Virus record (IMG/VR): IMGVR_UViG_3300017991_000054
Reading direction: 5' to 3' (one strand)
DNA length: 64,000 bases
From: an uncultured virus (IMG/VR IMGVR_UViG_3300017991_000054)
Lineage: Duplodnaviria; Heunggongvirae; Uroviricota; Caudoviricetes
Part shown: positions 50,716 to 62,782 of the stretch, one piece after another
Layout: each line of letters starts with the position of its first letter
Numbering within the stretch: the first letter of the stretch is position 1
Notes under the pieces: generated by a model
What the model saw: the letters and a program-made list of their open reading frames with translations, nothing else
The model's database searches: none
Told to the model about the DNA's origin: nothing
Program-made: the position numbers and the translations under genes

Positions 50716-50787
50716 GGGTCCGAGGTCATGGTGACCAAACTGGCTCCAAACCAGTAGGACGGGGTTCGATTCCTCGCGGGCCTGCCA
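50716..50787 (+). tRNA. tRNA-Trp(CCA)
   Basis: cloverleaf; ACTGG-CT CCA AA-CCAGT; TTCGA; CCA end. Confidence 0.9.
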
Positions 50788-50791
50788 ATAC

Positions 50792-50866
50792 GGTCCCGTA
50801 GCTCAGTGGCAGAGCAGTTGGCTTATAACCGACAGACGATAGGTTCGATTCCTACCGGGACTACCA
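50792..50866 (+). tRNA. tRNA-Ile(TAT)
   Basis: cloverleaf; GTTGG-CT TAT AA-CCGAC; CCA end. Confidence 0.9.
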
Positions 50867-51460
50867 TGAAAAAGAAACTAGATAAAGAGCTTAAAAAACT
50901 TTTACCAGAAGGTACAAAGATCTCTTGGTTAACTTGTATTGACTGTGGTTGTCAATTTGAAGCCACAGAATTCTTCATCAAAAAGGAGTTAAAACACAGA
51001 TGTCGTGATTGTCAACACAACTGGTGTGAAGCAATTGGCGATAAATATGGGTGGTATTAACTCCGAGGAGTCGATCATGTGTCCCTTTGACGACATTGAT
51101 CGGCTTAAAGATGCTATAGCGAGATCTAAAAGGAGACGAGCGAAAGAGTTTGTGTATCTTAAAGTCGATCAACTAAAAGACGGTCATCTCTATAAGATTA
51201 ATGCTAGAAACGCATCGTATGGAATATGGATCGCCGAGCATGGTCATTTTATTATTTCTAGAGTGAAAATGAATACAAATTTTTTATTCGAAGAGATTCA
51301 CTGGGATTTAAGCGATCACTTCGGGACTGTGAGACCACTTATGGAAATAGAAAAGAGTCCTTTTCGACATCATGATTTTGATAGTACAGGTATGCAATAC
51401 AGGGAGGAAAAAGAAATTCTAAAATACCTTAACGGATTTGAGAGACGTTAACCTAAATAT

Positions 51461-51534
51461 TCCAGGGTAGTTCAAAGGCAGAACGGGTGGCTGTTAACCA
51501 CTTAATGGAGGTTCGAGTCCTCCTCCTGGAGCCA
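51461..51534 (+). tRNA. tRNA-Asn(GTT)
   Basis: GGTGG-CT GTT AA-CCACT; CCA end. Confidence 0.92.
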
Positions 51535-51761
51535 ACTCAAATCTGGAGGTATTATGACAAGTCCCTGTAAGGAATGTGGTAAACACAAAGAAGAATTTCC
51601 TGATTGTTTTGATGGTTGTAAACGCATTGCTGCTTTCCAAAATTCCATCATCATGTTTCCTGAACGAGAAATAGTTGAAAGATATGACTATAATGAATGT
51701 GTTGAAGCTGGTATATGTCTACCTGAATGTATAGGTCTTTCAAAAACTAAAATGTTATATT

Positions 51762-51835
51762 AGGCTCGTAGCTCAATGGTAGAGCACAGGGTTTTGGCCC
51801 CTGTTACGTAGGTTCGATTCCTACCGGGCCTTCCA
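51762..51835 (+). tRNA. tRNA-Gln(TTG)
   Basis: CAGGG-TT TTG GC-CCCTG; CCA end. Confidence 0.9.
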
Positions 51836-51839
51836 TTTT

Positions 51840-51949
51840 TTGGGGATAGTGTATGTCTTCGGACATCAGTTGAATGGGTAGTGGAGTAACTGCTGGCAGA
51901 GCCGTTAAATATTCACCCATGAATTTGCAGGGGCTCCCACTATCCCCAA
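51840..51949 (+). ncRNA. unassigned ~110-nt structured RNA
   Basis: 12-bp terminal stem TTGGGGATAGTG/CACTATCCCCAA, C(UUCG)G hairpin, two further arms. Confidence 0.6.
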
Positions 51950-51979
51950 TTTAAAAAACCCTAAAGGAGGAAATTGAGA

Positions 51980-52672
51980 ATGGCTGATTTAAGTGTATCG
52001 GAGAATAAGGATGCGAAGCTTGCGAAAAAACTAAAAAATTACGTTGCGATTGTTCTTGATCGTAGTGGTTCGATGGGAACGATGCAACAGGAAGCAATTG
52101 ATGCATTCAACGAACAGGTTGATAAGATTCGAGAAGAGTCGCATGACATGGCAACTCTTGTCTCATTTGTCACATTTGGAAGTTTTGTAACACCGGAGTT
52201 CTGGAACAATGATCCTGATAAACTGGATAAGCTGACTACGGATACATATCGTCCAGATGGTATGACCTCTATGTTAGACGCAGTTGCTATGACTGTTTTG
52301 GAATTGAAAAAGGTTCCTGATGTAGATGATGAGGATACATCTTTTCTTCTTATTGTCATTAGTGACGGGCAAGAAAATAACTCAAAACAATATGATTGGC
52401 ATGACGTAGCAGAACTACTACAAGATGTACAAAAGACGAATAGATGGACTGTAACCTATCTTGGAGCGAACCAAGATCTCTCAAGATTAGCTTCCAGCTT
52501 AAAAATCGCTAAGGGAAATGTAAAATCATTTGCTGGTACAAAAGCAGGAATGAAAACAGGATCAGCAGATATTCTCAAAGGAATGTCCGCATTTTATGCT
52601 TCCCGAAGAGTTGGAAAGAAATCACTAACGTCATTTTATGATGGAGACGATAACCAGCAAGATAGCCAGTGA
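51980..52672 (+). CDS. vWA domain protein
   Basis: MIDAS DRSGSM, T...DA, ISDGQEN.S, YLGANQD. Confidence 0.9.
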   Translation: MADLSVSENKDAKLAKKLKNYVAIVLDRSGSMGTMQQEAIDAFNEQVDKIREESHDMATLVSFVTFGSFVTPEFWNNDPDKLDKLTTDTYRPDGMTSMLDAVAMTVLELKKVPDVDDEDTSFLLIVISDGQENNSKQYDWHDVAELLQDVQKTNRWTVTYLGANQDLSRLASSLKIAKGNVKSFAGTKAGMKTGSADILKGMSAFYASRRVGKKSLTSFYDGDDNQQDSQ

Positions 52673-52689
52673 CCTGAAAGGAGGTAGCC

Positions 52690-53199
52690 ATGGACCGGGT
52701 CATTTTACTCAATAGTGACTACAGTTTCCTCAACACTATCAGTTGGCAAAAGGCTATGTGTCTCATGGCAAAAGGAAAAGTCGAGGTTGTCAAAGCCTCG
52801 AATAAAATAGTCCAAAGTGTTGAGAATGCTTGGAAATGTGTAGTACCTCAGGTAATTAGATTGATCAAATTGGTACGTACAATATATCGTTCTCGAGTAC
52901 CATTTAGCAAAAAGAATGTACTATATCGAGACGAGTTCACTTGTCAATATTGTGGAAAAACACGAGGTAAATTAACCATCGACCACGTGATACCAAAATC
53001 CAAAGGTGGTAAATCTACCTTCGAAAATTGTGTTGCTTCCTGTAAACCTTGTAATAATACAAAAGGTAATAGAACTCCACGAGAAGCAAAGATGCCACTC
53101 AGGAAACATCCTGTGCAACCAACCATTATGGAGTTTCTAAAACTTCGTATGAGAAAGTTGGGCATTGACTCCCTTCTAAAAGAACTTGGTATCTATTAA
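52690..53199 (+). CDS. HNH endonuclease
   Basis: RD.F.CQYCG...TIDHVIPKSKGG...N...C..CN..K. Confidence 0.92.
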   Translation: MDRVILLNSDYSFLNTISWQKAMCLMAKGKVEVVKASNKIVQSVENAWKCVVPQVIRLIKLVRTIYRSRVPFSKKNVLYRDEFTCQYCGKTRGKLTIDHVIPKSKGGKSTFENCVASCKPCNNTKGNRTPREAKMPLRKHPVQPTIMEFLKLRMRKLGIDSLLKELGIY

Positions 53200-53259
53200 A
53201 AGTTACGGTTTGTATATATATAAATATACAACAAGGACTTTTTGAAAGGAGGAGAACAG

Positions 53260-53823
53260 GTGAAAAACAAGGGTACATGGTTGGTGGTAATTGGACTGAT
53301 TTTGTCATTGGTGTTTATACGTCAATTTCAAATCAGTGAAATGAAAGATCGAGGTAGGATCGCCATTGAATTCTTTGAAAAAGAAGGTGTTGAAGATTAT
53401 GATAAGTATTTGATGGCGATCAACCTCAGTGATCCTGTAAGGGTCATAACCTTAAAGAAGGGTACAAGAGTCGCTCAATATCAGACTTCTAATGCACCGC
53501 AAGGGAATTATTACGCTCCGGAGAAATCAACTCCAGAAACGTTAGGTGTCAATCCCGAAGCTATTGATCCAAAAACAGGAATGAAAGAACCTCGTAAGAA
53601 ACGTGTTTATATACTAACAATTAATACACAGGTCCTTCAATCTCAAGCTTCTGGAACGTATGACACGTGGTCAGTTGAAGGTCAGAGGATCAAAGTGAGG
53701 GGAACAGGCATTCAATATTTCTCTACTTGCAAATCTTGTTTCAAGTTGGAAAAACCCACAACGTATGAAGGAGCGCTTTGGTGGAGTATTCTTCCCCCTG
53801 AAGTTGCTATGGTGATGCAATGA
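53260..53823 (+). CDS. membrane-anchored polymorphic toxin type 46 (Ntox46)-like protein
   Basis: N-terminal TM; PV.V.TLKKGT..AQYQ...PQGNYY.P...P..LG...DTWS...G.G.QYF. Confidence 0.65.
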   Translation: MKNKGTWLVVIGLILSLVFIRQFQISEMKDRGRIAIEFFEKEGVEDYDKYLMAINLSDPVRVITLKKGTRVAQYQTSNAPQGNYYAPEKSTPETLGVNPEAIDPKTGMKEPRKKRVYILTINTQVLQSQASGTYDTWSVEGQRIKVRGTGIQYFSTCKSCFKLEKPTTYEGALWWSILPPEVAMVMQ

Positions 53824-54074
53824 AAATCAAAGACCTTCAAGAGTTTAGCGACCTTGTACGAGAGGGTGGAAAAAATTGGGACGATACCAAATTTGATAGG
53901 TTTTGCGAACTGCGAGATATCGCAAAGAATGATGGTCTTATAAAAACATGGACCGAAGGTGATAGCGAGATCACATTTCATAAATTCAAATGGTCGCAAG
54001 GTGCGTATACATTTGCTGCAATTCATGGTATTTACCTAGCAGACCTAGCTGATCCAGAAGAGGATGACAACTAA

Positions 54075-54165
54075 AGCGGGGTATGCTAACTGGCTAAGCA
54101 ACCTGATTTGAAATCAGGCGTAGGTGTCAAAGCCGATCGGGGTTCGAGTCCCTGTCCCGCCGCCA
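54075..54165 (+). tRNA. tRNA-Ser(TGA)
   Basis: CCTGA-TT TGA AA-TCAGG; long variable arm; GCCA end. Confidence 0.9.
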
Positions 54166-54566
54166 TTTTTATTCATAGGTGAATAATGAAGGTTAAATTG
54201 ACTAATGTGAAAACTGGAAAAGTGAAGACCTTTGATCCTGATACTGATCGATTAATCTTTAGTGCGACAAGTAAAGATCCTATAAGAATACTTGTATGGG
54301 ACGAATATTCAATTGAGGTCATGGATGGAAAGGTAACCAGAGAAGAACGAATGGAGAACGTAACATTATGAAACGAGAGACGAAAGAACAACTCTTAATC
54401 CGGCGAGTCTTCAAGGTTATAGCGGAACATTTTTTTAACGACCATAAAATGATCGAGTGTTATTGCGGCGATGTTAGTTTTCCAAGACAACTTGGCGACG
54501 ACATCACAGAATATGTCAAGAAAAACAATCCTGGTTATTTTCGAAAAAAAGAAAAAGAATTTAAAC

Positions 54567-54654
54567 GGTGAGGTGGCCGAGGTGGTCAAGGCACTGTCTT
54601 GGAAAGGCAGCGGGTGTCAAAGCCCTGCAGGTTCGAACCCTGTCCTCACCGCCA
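54567..54654 (+). tRNA. tRNA-Ser(GGA)
   Basis: CTGTC-TT GGA AA-GGCAG; long variable arm; GCCA end. Confidence 0.92.
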
Positions 54655-54659
54655 TTTAC

Positions 54660-54756
54660 GCCGTAGTGGTGTATCGGATGCACGCCGGAGGCGTCAGGTG
54701 ACGACCTGTTGTGAGTCCCGGAGGAATCGCGGGTTCAACCCCCGTCTACGGCTCCA
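54660..54756 (+). ncRNA. tRNA-like RNA with extended (37-nt) anticodon arm
   Basis: acceptor GCCGTAG/CTACGGC + T-CCA; D arm GTGT/GCAC; T arm GCGGG-TTCAACC-CCCGT; no 7-nt anticodon loop. Confidence 0.75.
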
Positions 54757-54937
54757 ATAGAAAGGAGAAAATTATTGACATATACAAAGGATGGTTCATG
54801 TCCATTTTGTAATAAACGATTACCAATTTGGATTCGAGAAACTGATAATGGAGAAATTGAATGCTACTGTGAAGATTGTAAACGGACCTTTATTGATAGC
54901 CTAAAGGATGACGGTTCTCCAAGAAAGAAGAAAGAAA

Positions 54938-55528
54938 ATGCAGCTTGATAATATAGCTCTATTTGATATGGATGATACCATTGTTGATTTTGACATTGGA
55001 ATGCTTCGAGAATTGCAAAAGATGGCAGCACCAGGAGAATTTTGTGGGCACTCCCATTACAGTAAAGATGACCCACTACACATCAGAGCAAGAAAACATT
55101 CAATTATGCGCCAAGTTGGATGGTGGAGAAATCTTCCAAGAAAACGAATAGGTTTTCAAATCATGGAAATTGCTTCCGCAATGGGATTTGAAATTCATAT
55201 TCTAACAAAAGGTCCGTCAACAAAACCACATGTATGGACTGAAAAGATTGAGTGGTGTAAAGAACATCTTGGAGATACTCCTGTCACAATTACTCAGGAT
55301 AAAGGTCTCGTGTACGGAAAAGTCTTAGTGGATGATTATCCCGCCTACATTGAGAGATGGTTAAAGTGGCGTCCTCGTGGATTAGTTGTGATGCCAGATA
55401 CTGTTCATAATAGACATTTTGATCACCCAAACGTTGTTCGAGCAACAGGTGAGAATTTTGACATTGTTGAAGCAGCAATGACTTTAGCTGCTAAAAGACC
55501 ACCAGGGGAAAGGAGAATTTTTAAGTGA
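54938..55528 (+). CDS. HAD-family 5'(3')-deoxyribonucleotidase
   Basis: FDMDDT, ILT, EK.EW...H, K..V.G.VLVDD. Confidence 0.85.
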   Translation: MQLDNIALFDMDDTIVDFDIGMLRELQKMAAPGEFCGHSHYSKDDPLHIRARKHSIMRQVGWWRNLPRKRIGFQIMEIASAMGFEIHILTKGPSTKPHVWTEKIEWCKEHLGDTPVTITQDKGLVYGKVLVDDYPAYIERWLKWRPRGLVVMPDTVHNRHFDHPNVVRATGENFDIVEAAMTLAAKRPPGERRIFK

Positions 55529-56286
55529 AGTACTATTTTGTGAAACTCGAAAAAGATTGGGCGGATGAATTTGACGTAAAAAGTCTTTCTGTTATTTCTG
55601 AGAAAGATTGGAAACAATTTCAAGAAGATATTAACAAGTATGATGGGTATCCAATTGAATGTTATTTTGGGACCAACGAAGCATTACTCTTTGAGAGCGA
55701 ACAAGATATTATGCACAGCTTATCTCCAGTTGAAGTATCTGAATCCGAGGCTGAACTTTTAAAGAAGGTTATGAAGGGAAAGAGTTTTGGGCAGGTAGAT
55801 GTATTTGATGTCTGGGATCATACTAGAGGCGCTTATGGATAAAGGAAACCTTTTTCAAACATAAGAACATAATACAAACCTTAAACTTGAAAGGAGGGTA
55901 TTATGTTACCTTTAATCCCTGCAATGATTTTAACAAGTGCTGGTTTTCTCGCGATTTCTCCAACGCTGAGAAAAGAAACAATGGACTTTGGGAGAAGTGC
56001 TGTAAAGAGATGTGGTAAAGCATTAGACGCTTTATTTGATGATCCAAATGACGAGGTAAAAGATCCTACCGATGAAAAAACGGATCCAACTGATGTCTAG
56101 GAGTTCACATGAGATTGTTTATAGGTTTAGCAATTGCTTTTGTAGTCCTATACTTGGCTGCAGGATTTTTCTTGAGTTATGCTCTTGAAGGTATTGCATC
56201 CAGACAACCAACTTTTCCCGAGAGAATACAATTTGCTTTTACTTGGGGTTGGGATTTTGTTATTAGTAGATTAATCAATAAATAAT

Positions 56287-56650
<364 letters not shown>

Positions 56651-56652
56651 TT

Positions 56653-56677
56653 AAATCAGTCGTGCGACTGATTTTTT
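56653..56677 (+). terminator. intrinsic terminator after ssrA
   Basis: AAATCAGTC/GACTGATTT stem plus T run. Confidence 0.8.
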
Positions 56678-56718
56678 GTACAAAAATTATAGTAGGAAGG
56701 GTAAGTGTTGTTTGAAAA

Positions 56719-57288
56719 ATGCCACACGCGAATGTACCGGATGAAGTTGAAGAGTTAAAAGAAACGTTGTATCAAATGTTGACCGTAGACCCAAATGACG
56801 AGAGGGATGTAAAGATCGGTCAAAAAATGGACGTTGCTTTATCACCGACAATCAAAAGAGATGGTGTGAATATTATCCAGTTGCAAAATGTTGACAACCG
56901 GATTACAACAAATGTAGTAGAAGCCCTGAAGATAACAGATCGACTTCAATCAACTTTGATGACCGGAACTAGACGTCTCAAACCTAGCATTGAAAAAGAT
57001 CTAAAACAACAAATTGAAACTCTCGAACAACAGATTTCTCGACATAATGGAGATGATGTAATTGACATTACTCCAAAACAAATTGAACATAAAGACCCAA
57101 TCAAAGATATTGTATCAGGATTCTTTAATGATGGAACAACTATGCGAGAGTTTTTAAATGAAATGAAAAAGGAGTATGTGAAATATGCTCTTGACGTCTC
57201 GAGTAGTGATAAAGAAGCAGCTGAAAAACTAGATCTTCAACCTACTTCATTACCAGGGTTGAAGAAGAGATTAGACTTAATTGGTTGA
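56719..57288 (+). CDS. protein with C-terminal Fis-type helix-turn-helix
   Basis: FLNEMKKEYVKYAL......EAAEKLDL..TSL. Confidence 0.65.
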   Translation: MPHANVPDEVEELKETLYQMLTVDPNDERDVKIGQKMDVALSPTIKRDGVNIIQLQNVDNRITTNVVEALKITDRLQSTLMTGTRRLKPSIEKDLKQQIETLEQQISRHNGDDVIDITPKQIEHKDPIKDIVSGFFNDGTTMREFLNEMKKEYVKYALDVSSSDKEAAEKLDLQPTSLPGLKKRLDLIG

Positions 57289-57368
57289 GTGGCGGAATAG
57301 GTATACGCGCAACGTTGAGGGCGTTGTGAGCTAAGCTCATGTGGGTTCGACTCCCACCTCAACCACCA
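57283..57368 (+). tRNA. tRNA-Leu(GAG)
   Basis: CAACG-TT GAG GG-CGTTG; long variable arm; ACCA end. Confidence 0.92.
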
Positions 57369-57959
57369 AAATAGAATAGGAGAATATGTGAAATGTATGA
57401 CACAGATGGAATGAGTGATAGACCAATGGGTGAAAGTATGAAACCTTGTAAACCTGATTATGAAGCAATGGCTGCAACATCAAAACAAAATCTTGATGTT
57501 GTAAAAAATTTTAGAGCTTCATTGATAGATTTTATCAGTGTGATTGGTCGACATAGTATGCGGAGACGGGAACCTTCTTCTCTTCCAGAACTCTTAGGAA
57601 CTGTAGAACTGGATATTATTTCAAGAGAAAGAGAGGTTGAAAATTTACTCAAACAAATTGAGGAATAGAAGACCTATGGGACGGTTACGAAAAGGAAGAA
57701 AAGTAATCGAATTATTCCCAAGAGATGAGCAAGAATTCCATCAATTTTTGGATATGCTCAGAGACACTTACGACGAAAACAGACTGAAAAACTTTATTTG
57801 TATTTATGATTACGAATTCAAAGAAGATGATGAACGAGTAGAGAGCTACGCAAGTGGTATTGACACTCATTGGTTTGGGGATAAATCAACAATTTATATT
57901 CTTGGACTAATTGAAATGATTAAGCAAGAAGTAATGGATTGGTTAGATAACAACAATTA

Positions 57960-58048
57960 GGGCGAGTGGCGAAATCTAGGTAGACGCACGGGACTTAAAA
58001 TCCCGCGAGCTTAAGCTCATGGGGGTTCGACTCCCCTCTTGCCCACCA
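57960..58048 (+). tRNA. tRNA-Leu(TAA)
   Basis: CGGGA-CT TAA AA-TCCCG; ACCA end. Confidence 0.92.
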
Positions 58049-58055
58049 AAATAAT

Positions 58056-58142
58056 GCCCGAGTGGCGGAACTGGTAGACGCGCTAGACTTAGGATCTAGT
58101 GACCGTAAGGTCATGGGGGTTCGACACCCTCCTCGGGTACCA
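58056..58142 (+). tRNA. tRNA-Leu(TAG)
   Basis: CTAGA-CT TAG GA-TCTAG; ACCA end. Confidence 0.92.
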
Positions 58143-58146
58143 ATTT

Positions 58147-58246
58147 TATAATGGGTGTTTTATTCACCATTAACCTATGATTTTATCTATAATGGGGTAT
58201 ATACTCCCCATTAACCGAGTTAAGGGGTGTTATACTCCCCATTACG
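58147..58246. repeat. three imperfect palindromic repeats of ~24-29 bp
   Basis: TATAATGGGTGTTTTATTCACCATTAACC; TATAATGGGGTATATACTCCCCATTAACC; TAAGGGGTGTTATACTCCCCATTA. Confidence 0.8.
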
Positions 58247-58258
58247 AAAGGAGTGTAT

Positions 58259-58585
58259 ATGAAAAAAGAACATCTTTTTTCTGTTACAAAGAAAGATATT
58301 GAAATTACATATTACTCAGGTAGAGGTGCTGGTGGTCAGCATCGTAATAGGCACAAAAACTGAGTAAGGATGAGACACCCAGAATCAGGGGTAATGGTCA
58401 CTGGGTGTGATCACAAAAGTCTTACACAAAATAAAAGAGCTGCATTTTTACGTTTAGCAAACCATCCAAAGTTCATACAATGGGCGAAAATAAAAGCATC
58501 TGGTGTCTCATTAGAATTGGATAAAATTCAAGAGAAAGTAGATAACTGGATGAGACCAGAGTTCATAAAAGTTGAATATTTTTAA
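58259..58585 (+). CDS. GGQ peptidyl-tRNA hydrolase / release-factor-like protein with in-frame TGA at codon 35 (recoded or pseudogene)
   Basis: AGGAG SD; MKKEHLFSVTKKDIEITYYSGRGAGGQHRNRHKN*VRMRHPESG...QNKRAAFLRL, TGA at 58361-58363. Confidence 0.8.
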
Positions 58586-58987
58586 GGGGTAGTTATGGAC
58601 CTTGAATTAGAAAAGAAGTTATTTGAAAAATACCCAAAAATCTTTGCTCAAAAAGATGAGTCAATGCAACGAACCGCAATGTGCTGGGGAATTGAGTGCG
58701 GAAATGGGTGGTATTGGTTAATTGATAATTTGTGTGACAGTATTCAATTTCATATCGACCATAACAAAGCACTTCAACTAGAAGCAACTCAAGTCAAAGA
58801 AAAATTTGGAAGTCTTAGTTTTTATAGTATTGGTGGTGATGAACTTATACGAGGAATGATTTGGTTCGCTCAAAGTTTATCACGAAAAATATGTGAAAAC
58901 TGTGGAACAACCAAAGACGTAAAATCTACTAAAGGATGGATTCATAATCTCTGTCCATCATGTACAGAGGAATATTTACAAAGTAAA

Positions 58988-59073
58988 GGCTAAGTGGTGG
59001 AATTGGTATACACGCTAGTCTCAAAAACTAGTGCTTTCAGAGCATGTGGGTTCGACTCCCACCTTAGCCACCA
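58988..59073 (+). tRNA. tRNA-Leu(CAA)
   Basis: CTAGT-CT CAA AA-ACTAG; ACCA end. Confidence 0.92.
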
Positions 59074-59288
59074 CTTCGGGAGGACAACATGATAAATTTT
59101 TTGTTTGGACTTGGTGCAGGTATTGTAGCAGCATCGGTTATTTGGTATTTCGTTTTGAGAAACAATAGAAATAAACTCGCTCAATTCATTGATGTTCCAG
59201 AAGCAATGTGGGAAAAGGTAAAACAAGAAGTAGATGAATTCGATGACGATGTGAAAGATAAACTCCAAAATTTATTCAATAAGAAATA

Positions 59289-59373
59289 GGCGGGGACACC
59301 AATGGTGGTAACGAGCCTCGAAAACTCGGGCGTGTAGACAGCGTAGTCGGTTCGATTCCGGCTCCCGCCGCCA
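59289..59373 (+). tRNA. tRNA-Ser(CGA), atypical D arm
   Basis: GGCGGGG/TCCCGCC acceptor; CT CGA AA loop; long variable arm; GCCA end. Confidence 0.75.
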
Positions 59374-60166
59374 CAGGGTGAATTATGTTTACGATATCGA
59401 GATGGAAGAAGTGGCAAAAAGAATGGTTTCATGTTGCTGTTATAGTTGATAATGTAAAAACTACTACATTTATCAATGGAAAGCTACGGTTTATTCATTA
59501 TGGATAAGAAAGACGAGTTGTATGATATAGCTTTTGAATTGGAAAGATTTGCCTCCGAAGGTTTAAAAGGATGGGCATCAAAAGAACTCAAGAAACTCGT
59601 TGATCGAATAAGAGAGGTAGCAAAAAATGTCGATTGATTGGAACCAAGCTTGTGGAATTTTTTTGTCTGTTGGTTGGGTAATCTTTGTAGGAATCCCGTA
59701 TATGAAAAGAGACTGGCGTGAAAGAAAAAAATAAAATTAGAGCACTATTTGGTCTTGGTGTTGCTGGCGCTCTCATTGCTGGCCTCATGTTTTATATGGC
59801 GCTTGTGGCAGGCGTTGAAGTATCAGTACAAAACGTAAAGAAAAGTGTACAGGTGAATAAAATGACAAGAGTGAATGTTGTGTTAAATGTTTATGAAGGT
59901 GATAGTATGGGTCCGGGTTATGAAGAATATATTTGTAGCTTTGAGAGACATACTTTACTTGTTATTGAACCAGTTATGCACATGATCCTTGACTTTGATG
60001 GTTACGGATTTGAGGTACGTGCAATTATTCAAAATGTAAACGAAGGACTTTTAACTGTTCAGGACAAATTTGTAATTAGTCCATCAGACGATGTTGAAGA
60101 CAAAGTTAAATTTCTTCAAACAAAACTTGGGTCTGAGTGGAAAAAAGTAGATAAGGGTTTATAATT

Positions 60167-60717
60167 TTTGGGACTCGCGGTCGATTAATTTTAGTACTAG
60201 GAGGTACTTAAATGAAAGATCTAGTTAAGATGACCGACTCGTTGACGGGTGGTTTTCCGGACTGGGATCGTTTCGACAAATTCTTCGACCGATTCGCAGA
60301 CAACTTCACGGAGAACTTTTTTACTAACTTTCCAACTTCTGTTGGACAACCAAAGGCCTCATTCCCAAAGATCAATGCTTGGGAAGATGAATCGAGTTAT
60401 CATGTAGAGGCCGCTCTGGCGGGGTTTGACAAAGATGACGTCGAACTCGAATTTAAGGACAACTCTCTTTATCTCAAGGTTGAAAAACAAAAAGATGAAG
60501 GGAAGCCAGGTAAATACACCATTCGAGAAATCTCATATAGGTCAGCAAGTAGAGGTATTCAATTTGCTAAACCTGTAGACGTCAATAAGATTTCTTCAAC
60601 ATTTAAAAATGGTGTATTGAAAGTGGATCTCGGGAAAGAAGATATTCCTGAGAAACCAGACTCCGTTAAAATTGACATTAAATAATAACCTTTAATAGCT
60701 CGACTGCGAGTCCCAAA
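60167..60717. repeat. inverted-repeat arms 60167-60184 and 60700-60717 enclosing the Hsp20 gene
   Basis: TTTGGGACTCGCGGTCGA vs TCGACTGCGAGTCCCAAA: 17 Watson-Crick pairs plus one G-U on the + strand. Confidence 0.9.
60212..60685 (+). CDS. small heat-shock protein (Hsp20/alpha-crystallin)
   Basis: FP.IN..E...Y.VE..LAGF.K.DV, REI.YRS..R, F.NGVL.V. Confidence 0.92.
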   Translation: MKDLVKMTDSLTGGFPDWDRFDKFFDRFADNFTENFFTNFPTSVGQPKASFPKINAWEDESSYHVEAALAGFDKDDVELEFKDNSLYLKVEKQKDEGKPGKYTIREISYRSASRGIQFAKPVDVNKISSTFKNGVLKVDLGKEDIPEKPDSVKIDIK

Positions 60718-60973
60718 TTCACGATACAAACCGACTTCTAGTTTCATAAAAGTCTAGAACATATTATAAATAATTCTTTTGGGGGTAAAAATGAATTCTG
60801 TATTTTTTCATTTTGAGCATTATAACTTCGCCCCTAGTTCCTCCGGTTATCCAACTGAACCGGATATTATGGAACCATCACGCCAAGAAGGATCTCTTTT
60901 GTAATTCACATAGACTTCCTTCTTGAGCAAGAGGGAAGTTTAAAACTCCCCTCTGTAGTAATAAATCCAAAAC

Positions 60974-61051
60974 GGCCTGTTAGTGTTAATAGGTAGAACA
61001 CGACGCCCTGTCACGGCGTTACTGCCGGTTCGAGTCCGGTACAGGCCGCCA
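60974..61051 (+). tRNA. tRNA-Asp(GTC)
   Basis: ACGCC-CT GTC AC-GGCGT; GCCA end. Confidence 0.92.
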
Positions 61052-61294
61052 TTATCAAAAAGGATTGTAGTGATGAGCATTCCCCTATGGATGCAGCACT
61101 ATATTAACCCGCTGCATGTTTATTGCCGACTTATTGACATTGGATTAAGTAGGGAGAACGCGCTGAAAATAACTTGTCTTTACGAAAAAACCATATATAA
61201 TTTTATTGGTAATAATTTCAATCATCGAAGTTTGAATCTAACTAGGGAAGAATGTCGGGAAGTTCTCTCTAAAAATTATTGTGATAATAACTAT

Positions 61295-61380
61295 GGCGAG
61301 GTGGAGTAATGGTATCTCAATGGTTTGCTACACCATCCAGGTTCACCCCTGTGCAGGTTCGAATCCTGTCCTCGCCGCCA
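61295..61380 (+). tRNA. tRNA-Ser(GCT)
   Basis: ATGGT-TT GCT AC-ACCAT; long variable arm; GCCA end. Confidence 0.88.
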
Positions 61381-61673
61381 CGGAGTTAATATGCCAAAAA
61401 TTTCTGATATAGTTAAAGACCCGGAGTGGCAAAAAGTCAGGAAAAGTCTTCTGGGTCAATGGAGTAAGCGACCTGACTGGTGTTGCGCACAACTCCGAAA
61501 ATATCTAGGTACGATAAATAAGACGAGTAACGATAAAATAAGAATCGTAATGAATTATGCTACAGGAACAGGGTTTAGAACCGGAAAGATTAAACCACCT
61601 TGTATAGTAAAATTAAGAACTCAGCTATCAGCTGAAATAAAGAAAAGAAAAGCGAAAAAGAGTTGGTAATTAA

Positions 61674-61749
61674 CGCGGCGTGCATGTAATGGTAACAGGC
61701 GAGGTTCATATCCTCGTAATTGGGAGTTCGATTCTCCCCGCCGCTACCA
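61674..61749 (+). tRNA. tRNA-Met(CAT), initiator-like
   Basis: CGAGG-TT CAT AT-CCTCG; unpaired C1-U72; ACCA end. Confidence 0.85.
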
Positions 61750-61752
61750 AAT

Positions 61753-61826
61753 GGCTCGGGTATGTTGGCATACAGCTAGGGCTCATATCCTTGGTTACGT
61801 GGGTTCGATTCCCATACGAGCCACCA
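61753..61826 (+). tRNA. tRNA with CAT anticodon (Met or Ile2)
   Basis: TAGGG-CT CAT AT-CCTTG; T arm GTGGG-TTCGATT-CCCAT; ACCA end. Confidence 0.75.
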
Positions 61827-61831
61827 CAAAT

Positions 61832-61905
61832 GGGGCGATAGTTTAGTGGTAAAATCTGTGGCTTTCGACCACAAGTTCGGGGTTCGATTCCCCGTCGCCC
61901 TACCA
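61832..61905 (+). tRNA. tRNA-Glu(TTC)
   Basis: TGTGG-CT TTC GA-CCACA; ACCA end. Confidence 0.9.
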
Positions 61906-61932
61906 TTCTATCTTGAAAGGAGAATAGAGTAT

Positions 61933-62301
61933 ATGCGAATGTGGATGGTTGACCCAAAAATTATGTGTAGGAAACATCTTCTAGGCGAACACGTAGAACA
62001 TCATATGTTCATTGGAACACTCAAAAAAGGAATAAAAGTAGACGGTTATATAAGAAACAATTGTTTCCAACCAAGGTCATTATTTGAAAGACATGACGCG
62101 TTGGTTTGTGAAATGGAAAGACGTGGTTATAACCACCAAAGTCCAATTACTGAAGAGGAATGTGATGTATGTCATCTTCCAAATGAACAACAATATTGGA
62201 AAATAAATAAAGAGCAATCTCTCAGGGATCTCCTTGAGAGATGTCCTGAATGTAGATTGCGAAAGGAGCAATCGGATGACAGTGAAAGGCATATTCACTA
62301 A
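61933..62301 (+). CDS. pyrimidine-dimer DNA glycosylase (endonuclease V/DenV family)
   Basis: MRMW.V.P...C..HLLGEH.E...L..EM..RGYNH. Confidence 0.8.
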   Translation: MRMWMVDPKIMCRKHLLGEHVEHHMFIGTLKKGIKVDGYIRNNCFQPRSLFERHDALVCEMERRGYNHQSPITEEECDVCHLPNEQQYWKINKEQSLRDLLERCPECRLRKEQSDDSERHIH

Positions 62302-62693
62302 GAAAGCTGTAACTTGGCTATCTATAATCGGTGGAGGAATTGTAGCAATTACAGCAATTTTTCAACTTGATGAAAGATGGAATGAGGAATCGTGTATTTC
62401 TGCTTATGCGCAGGATGTTAAAGCTAATGGAGAAAAAATTGAGGAACTTACAGTCGCTGCTTCTAAAATTAGTAAGCGGCTGGACCAAAAGATTCTAGAA
62501 GATCAATCCAATAATCTACAGAATAGAATGTGGAAATTAGAGGATCGATATGGTCAACCAGCTCAAATGACTCCAGAGCAAAGAGAAATTTATAGAAACC
62601 TTCAACTCGATAAGAAAAAGGTCGATGATAGAATAAAGGCGTTAAAGAACTCGTCTTAGAAAATTTCTTAGGTTAAGGTAACATATATCAAAA

Positions 62694-62782
62694 GGGTGTG
62701 TAGACCGTTAAGGAAGGCGGCCCGGTCTGTAAAACCGGTGGCTTAAAGTCCCGAGTGGGTTCGATTCCCTCCACACCCACCA
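62694..62782 (+). tRNA. tRNA-Tyr(GTA)
   Basis: CCGGT-CT GTA AA-ACCGG; variable arm; ACCA end. Confidence 0.9.

Follow-up and report, generated by a model that had tools for sequence, protein, structure and literature searches.

The window, as we call the whole 64,000-nucleotide stretch of DNA analyzed here, is AT-rich (36.6% GC) and comes from a large T4-like phage of marine sediment or seawater. It encodes UvsX, ribonucleotide reductase, a clamp loader, a Dda-like helicase, sugar-modifying enzymes, MazG, dCMP deaminase and Hsp20. A related contig of 121 kb, G001, is 99.997% identical to the window over positions 1–37804 (37.8 kb), which is the whole of their overlap, and runs 83 kb further; it carries neither a tRNA gene nor the GGQ gene described below. 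Between 30105 and 45883, the window holds glycosyltransferases (GT9, GT1), two nucleotide-sugar epimerase-like genes and a methyltransferase, an arrangement that resembles phage glycan islands.

A GGQ gene within a tRNA and tmRNA island

An island spanning 50716–62782 comprises 16 tRNA genes and a full tmRNA gene, and encloses a gene for a mini release factor of the GGQ type that is interrupted by an in-frame TGA. The features around this gene are as follows.

56287–56648, + strand: complete tmRNA gene (Rfam, 153.5 bits, model positions 1–374)
57960–58048 and 58056–58142: tRNA-Leu genes immediately upstream of the GGQ gene
58246–58253, + strand: Shine-Dalgarno sequence GAAAGGAG, read from the sequence, 5 nt upstream of the ATG
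58259–58585, + strand: GGQ mini release factor gene, 108 codons, Shine-Dalgarno-led, with TGA at codon 35
58259–58360, + strand: codons 1–34, with GGQ at codons 25–27 (58331–58339)
58361–58363, + strand: in-frame TGA (opal), codon 35, in a column that is Cys in 140 of 146 relatives
58364–58585, + strand: codons 36–108 and the TAA stop (58583–58585), in frame 0, 73 codons past the TGA
58370–58372, + strand: ATG of Met38, the first after the TGA and 6 nt past it, a candidate re-initiation site
58988–59073: tRNA-Leu gene downstream of the GGQ gene

The tmRNA, with the predicted tag ADDYYTEVRLAA, lies 1.6 kb upstream of the GGQ gene. Comparable company is on record: excerpts of PMC5966550 place RF-1-domain genes, Pth and tmRNA inside tRNA arrays, and parts of PMC7162821 describe release factors and tmRNAs in huge phages.

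Several other elements of the island were noted in their own right. At 53242–53823 (+ strand) is a 193-aa ORF that matches Pfam Ntox46 (bacterial toxin 46; E 3e-21) and is followed, via an ATGA overlap, by an 84-aa ORF. Between tRNA-Leu(tag) and the Shine-Dalgarno sequence of the GGQ gene, at 58190–58246 (+ strand), there are two tandem copies, 31 nt apart, of an ∼24-nt motif with GGGGT..TATACTCCCCATTA. Its 12-mer occurs in the window twice exactly, both times at this site, and once with one mismatch, against 0.28 occurrences expected; the motif may serve as a promoter or operator, or mark a processing site. The gene directly downstream (58595–58993, + strand) encodes 132 aa with no family match and a terminal CxxC...CxxC zinc-ribbon-like motif.

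Direct translation of 58259–58585 (+ strand) gives MKKEHLFSVTKKDIEITYYSGRGAGGQHRNRHKN*VRMRHPESG... and bears out the first-pass annotation of this locus, which had described a Shine-Dalgarno-led frame that passes through an in-frame TGA and continues for 73 codons, and of which the ORF list holds the 3′ part alone (58370–58585, 71 aa). Both pieces have been called as separate proteins elsewhere, the 34-aa piece (P0047) on 4 contigs and the 71-aa piece (P0002) on 6. This separate calling, together with the short termination-reinitiation distance of 6 nt between the TGA and the ATG at 58370, would suit a split gene in which ribosomes stop at UGA35 and re-initiate at AUG38, yielding a 34-aa GGQ peptide and a 71-aa piece that act jointly or separately. 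We regard such an arrangement as very improbable. The cut would fall between the GGQ loop and strand 35–40 of one compact domain, and the Shine-Dalgarno-like AAGGA before Met38 overlaps the ATG, which makes for poor spacing. A search at shorter lengths found no two-piece homologs, only the window's own P0047. The relative P0029 lends the split some support, being likewise a C-terminal piece under purifying selection (see below), but it begins at Met46 rather than Met38, so that the restart site is not conserved.

The TGA itself is genuine. Contigs from four further runs (three studies) cover 58204–58605 at a depth of 8–9, with no differences inside the gene, although two of the runs (X2 and X3) gave contigs of equal length and so may not be independent. 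Ten flanking positions, among them 57480, 57690, 58690 and 58888, do distinguish these contigs from the window. A sequencing or assembly error as the source of the TGA was therefore rejected. All TGA-bearing sequences examined belong to one near-clonal population, ∼0.5% divergent in the flanks and identical in the gene. Among the runs listed with the locus, none was an RNA run.

Nor is the genetic code unusual. Among the 96 likely genes of the window, the stop is TAA in 55, TGA in 24 and TAG in 17, with several of the TGA codons in ATGA overlaps; TGA is thus an ordinary stop elsewhere, as first annotated. An alternative code was rejected on these counts and because G001 is dense with long ORFs under code 11. 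Across 147 kb (the window plus G001), no further TGA-interrupted gene was found; the two best same-frame ORF pairs of G001 proved to be separate neighboring genes.

Family, fold and predicted function

The read-through product matches Pfam RF-1 (PF00472) at residues 7–68 with 49.1 bits (cut-off 35; E 6.6e-13) and phrog_3122 at residues 2–106 (E 2.3e-16). Because both matches span the TGA, the homology crosses it in frame 0. The catalytic motif, G25 G26 Q27, is present and is nearly invariant in 45 aligned sequences. A profile built from these 45 members aligns with domain 3 of RF2/RF1 (E ∼1e-14), covering RF2 residues 237–312 only, with mtRF-R/C12orf65 over nearly its full length (E 1.4e-13) and with PrfH (E 1e-9); its match to ArfB (E 2e-5) is confined to profile positions 13–39. 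In the profile alignment, codon 35 corresponds to a small residue of RF2, the Ala of ‘ESAVRITH’, in line with what the first-pass annotation had stated for class I release factors.

An AF2 model of the full read-through product (pLDDT 85.7) has strands at residues 15–19, 35–40 and 45–49 and helices at 55–67 and 70–97. The best Foldseek matches of this model are to release factors, PrfH, mtRF-R and ArfB; at E ≤ 0.001 there are 35 PDB chains, with release factors, PrfH and mtRF-R among those listed. The initial assignment to the GGQ domain, domain 3 of release factors, is thus upheld by the two family matches, the RF2/RF1 profile match and the modeled fold. The codon-recognition domains 2 and 4 (PxT/SPF) are absent from the 108-aa product, as is a basic tail of the ArfB type: the C-terminal 39 residues include ∼7 Lys/Arg and ∼6 Asp/Glu.

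The family consists of small phage proteins of ∼108 aa that join the GGQ domain of class I release factors to a long C-terminal helix, and it counts at least 3850 database proteins at E ≤ 1e-10. We know of no study of the function of phrog_3122-type mini GGQ proteins. From its sequence and modeled fold, the protein is most likely a codon-independent peptidyl-tRNA hydrolase that would act on stalled ribosomes or split large subunits; the neighbors in the tRNA island, including the phage tmRNA, point the same way to a rescue-type function. Two members of the family, P0048 (L169:3001–3330) and P0025, have GGM in place of GGQ (GNGGMNKNAHHKCC), and one of these lies between tRNA genes on a 250-kb phage contig. 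To judge from this substitution, such paralogs may be catalytically altered or inactive.

The closest known counterparts are the phage ‘RF-1 domain’ proteins of phrog_3122, for example those of cluster C mycobacteriophages and Tunturiibacter phages, which share the ∼100-aa length and the single GGQ domain. In tblastn, the RF-1 genes of these phages match over 94–99% of the query at 35–40% identity, and phrog_3122 genes also sit in tRNA arrays, according to excerpts of PMC5966550. These genes are uninterrupted, whereas the window gene has a UGA at the Cys column; it is also a member of a sub-family from marine sediment that has an H-x3-H-x2-C motif, unlike the mycobacteriophage and Tunturiibacter genes. 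The GGQ gene is a variant within this known phage family.

More distantly, mtRF-R (C12orf65) and ArfB/ICT1, which are GGQ rescue factors that act independently of codons, resemble the window protein in that they too have the GGQ domain but lack those that read codons. The alignment with mtRF-R extends over residues 6–110 (E 1.4e-13), and the Foldseek matches include 7a5h_C, 6yss_y and 4v95_AY. The window protein differs from ArfB/ICT1 in lacking the basic tail and from mtRF-R in that no MTRES1-like partner was identified. We read the likeness to both as one of profile and predicted fold, and not as proof of family membership.

Codon 35 and the hairpin downstream of the TGA

Column 35 is occupied by Cys in nearly all of the 146 natural full-length relatives; the exceptions are two with Ser and one each with Asn, Ala, Gly and Trp. 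Cys or Sec would therefore fit at this position, as anticipated. At the DNA level, 210 sites among the loci listed could be read at codon 35, from 53 of 81 IMG/VR loci, all 80 listed metagenome loci and 77 sites in 77 genome-contig loci; the other 28 IMG/VR loci did not match the column motif and were left out. TGT or TGC is present at 121 of these sites, another sense codon at 89 and a stop at none. Alignment of homologs thus confirms Cys as the usual residue but reveals no conserved TGA. A TGA unique to this genome, with sense codons in its relatives, had been named in advance as evidence against recoding, and this is close to what the DNA of the listed loci presents; the truncated P0029 speaks against it, and only indirectly.

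Other relatives without Cys35 usually carry a Cys close by, at position 36, 38 or 49; P0022 is an exception, with none nearby. Position 32 is His and sometimes Cys. In the family alignment, conserved His28, His/Cys32, Cys35(/36) and His40, with a frequent Cys49/50, thus gather beside the GGQ loop. Canonical release factors have NKTxSA at this position and no such site. The alignment suggests that the movable Cys/His cluster, with H28, H32, C35 and H40 as candidate Zn ligands, is possibly a metal or redox site. We know of no redox catalysis in the mini GGQ family.

Past the TGA, the transcript could form a hairpin, described by the following features.

58375–58408, + strand: RNA hairpin with an 8-bp lower stem, ACACCCAG/CUGGGUGU, pairing 58375–58382 with 58401–58408
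same hairpin, + strand: 4-bp upper stem, AUCA/UGGU, and apical loop GGGGUAA at 58388–58394
58406–58408, + strand: TGT codon of Cys50, which contributes 3 nt of the 3′ arm

Folding of a 65-nt stretch gives a minimum free energy (MFE) of −18.1 kcal/mol (z −1.65), equaled in 13 of 200 shuffles. The first-pass annotation had described a weak hairpin with its loop 17 nt past the UGA; a hairpin is indeed there, but it is stronger, and its loop starts at 24 nt. It had also called the hairpin compatible with a bacterial SECIS element, and the four bSECIS consensus constraints given in the excerpts of PMC13188914 are satisfied: the loop is 7 nt long and the upper stem 4 bp, a G lies within the first two loop positions, the spacing is 24 nt and the MFE is below −7.5.

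On this basis the UGA might encode Sec, inserted by SelB of the host with the hairpin at 58375–58408 as SECIS element, so that Sec35 would face Cys50 beside the GGQ loop. A UGA aligned to Cys in most relatives is the classic Sec/Cys signature, the Cys cluster that moves among positions 32, 35, 36, 49 and 50 suggests a redox or metal site, and at the register of the hairpin the 119 relatives reach at most 5 of 8 pairs. Among the nearest homologs in genome bins are contigs labeled Deltaproteobacteria, Syntrophaceae and Pseudodesulfovibrio, groups rich in selenoproteins. In its UGA aligned to Cys and its consensus-type bSECIS hairpin, the window gene also resembles selenoprotein genes of the fdhF type.

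Unlike the fdhF type, however, the window gene has no Sec-bearing homolog among the loci listed, and its hairpin is largely explained by the protein sequence. The consensus is passed by 198 of the 2632 TGA trinucleotides in the window (7.5%), by 2 of 23 true TGA stops and by 32 of 194 homolog segments. Five of the eight stem pairs are forced by the His-Pro-Glu and Thr-Gly-Cys residues; among synonymous recodings with phage codon usage, 12% rebuild all eight pairs and 8.4% fold as well. In 8 of the 119 relatives there is a stem of at least 8 bp nearby, and of 118 segments from relatives, 20 fold at least as well as the window hairpin. Cys50, whose codon completes the 3′ arm, may be a change at the protein level. 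The hairpin is at best weak evidence for a SECIS element.

The remaining observations also tell against Sec. An Rfam search of 58200–58620 at a permissive E-value returned chance-level matches only and no SECIS, and neither a tRNA-Sec nor a suppressor tRNA was found in the 147 kb of window and G001, about half of a phage genome of ∼300 kb, as estimated from the completeness of G001. There is no second Sec form among the 210 loci listed, and the nearest full-length relative, P0004, has Trp and not Cys at column 35; that this Trp is a table-4 artefact is the less likely reading, since gene calling on the window's own short contigs apparently followed table 11. Among the titles and abstract openings found in a literature search, none described a phage selenoprotein, and the words ‘phage’ and ‘viral’ are absent from PMC13188914. 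A phage selenoprotein, one of three options in the first-pass annotation, is consequently the least supported of them, and we consider it unlikely.

A second option had been a sensor of limiting RF2, by analogy with the autoregulation of prfB, which like the window gene encodes a protein of the release-factor type and has an in-frame UGA early on. By this analogy, UGA decoding in the window gene could in principle report termination capacity. The comparison fails on mechanism: prfB relies on a +1 frameshift and an internal Shine-Dalgarno sequence, whereas here the homology stays in frame 0 and a shift to +1 at the TGA would meet GAG TAA, an immediate stop, so a prfB-type frameshift was rejected. 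The window protein, unlike RF2, has no codon-reading domain and hence cannot itself terminate at UGA.

Possible retention and decoding of the UGA

Two relatives are particularly informative. Among 146 full-length sequences and 2 fragments, ‘TGCD’, and with it Cys50, is found only in the window gene, P0004 and P0029; the others have Gln. From the strand register of the AF2 model, residue 50 would face residue 35 in a β hairpin. P0004 is full length, 63% identical to the window protein and has Trp at column 35, and P0029 is 79% identical but only 63 aa long, beginning at the conserved Met46. In a scan of IMG/VR, the best match to P0004 was 53% identical, and P0029 had none.

P0029 and the window protein differ at 13 positions, of which only one lies among the 29 columns with ≥50% conservation (hypergeometric P 0.0016). 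Since the differences avoid conserved columns, the region downstream of the TGA has been under purifying selection between the two lineages. The P0029 gene also looks interrupted upstream, to judge from its start, because gene callers begin at the internal Met46 when the frame breaks upstream of it; a contig end at exactly Met46 is possible but unlikely, and P0029 might carry a different lesion. For P0004, we lean toward a true TGG at codon 35 rather than a TGA read under table 4, because the short contigs of the window gene itself were apparently called under table 11, with no Trp35 version found. TGG and TGA are one transition apart.

Taken together, these observations lead us to favor, tentatively, the view that the opal codon is retained and leaks through decoding by tRNA-Trp. 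The Cys35 codon would have changed to UGA in the lineage of the window gene. Most ribosomes would then stop after 34 residues, and a small fraction would read the UGA by means of near-cognate tRNA-Trp, or of a suppressor tRNA from the unseen half of the genome, to make the full-length protein. This product would be the Trp35 form, as in P0004, and the usual Cys would have shifted to residue 50 on the neighboring strand in the TGCD clade. UGA is the leakiest stop codon, and tRNA-Trp can decode it, for example in the A1 read-through protein of phage Qβ, another phage gene whose longer product needs frame-0 read-through of a UGA. In Qβ, the coat protein is already complete at the UGA, and read-through appends a further domain, whereas the UGA of the window gene lies inside a single domain and its short product of 34 residues is probably useless.

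Several features argue for such leaky decoding. A Trp codon one transition from TGA apparently stands at this site in P0004, and P0029 seems to be interrupted yet has evolved under purifying selection downstream of the position of the TGA. The position of the Cys is flexible in the family, with Cys50 confined to the TGCD clade, and the phage has its own tRNA-Trp(CCA) in the same island. This tRNA (50716–50787, + strand) has an unusually short D-loop and scores 34.3 bits, against 35.6–69.7 for the other island tRNAs; its atypical D-loop might have a bearing on UGA decoding. A D-arm change of the Hirsh type was not seen in it, the 11:24 pair being G:C as read from the alignment.

Against a leaky codon stands the absence of TGA from all 210 relatives' DNA sites among the loci listed, and the two informative relatives are themselves open to other readings, P0004 possibly as a table-4 TGA and P0029 possibly as a contig end or the bearer of another lesion. 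The UGA is followed by G, which is not the leakiest context. That no other gene in the 147 kb is interrupted by TGA gives no sign of a dedicated suppressor, and low expression could be had more simply from a weaker ribosome-binding site. Moreover, all TGA copies are near-clonal (∼0.5%), and a young dead allele would look identical.

A recent inactivating nonsense mutation is accordingly a strong rival, doubtful on balance but a serious contender, as it had been among the options first proposed. TGT/TGC or TGG would have become TGA in an accessory gene and been fixed in a near-clonal population, with no additional decay of the gene so far and any full-length protein being accidental. One base change from Cys or Trp suffices, and the stop is confined to copies that are identical in the gene and nearly so in the flanks, in a phage whose overlap with G001 is almost without differences. 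The unexceptional hairpin, matched by many recodings and relatives, and the lack of a tRNA-Sec or suppressor tRNA in the 147 kb are in keeping with such a mutation. Phage genomes rarely retain dead genes, however, and the TGA sits on the one near-invariant Cys column, and does so in the very clade in which Cys50 arose. The pattern in P0029, N-terminally short and with differences that avoid conserved columns, would be unexpected if the downstream part had gone untranslated since a shared lesion, and so counts against this reading.

What the locus means depends on which of these histories holds. If the TGA is a fresh nonsense allele, the finding is an ordinary one. If it is retained, the in-frame UGA would be an uncommon instance of a stop codon redefined in a DNA phage with the standard code. 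Were Sec inserted, this would be the first bacteriophage selenoprotein, and pairing of Sec35 with Cys50 would form a selenenylsulfide redox switch on a phage ribosome-rescue factor. The movable Cys cluster by the catalytic loop may be of interest in its own right. Within phage tRNA islands, mini GGQ proteins abound, and many phages may use them to cope with stalled ribosomes.
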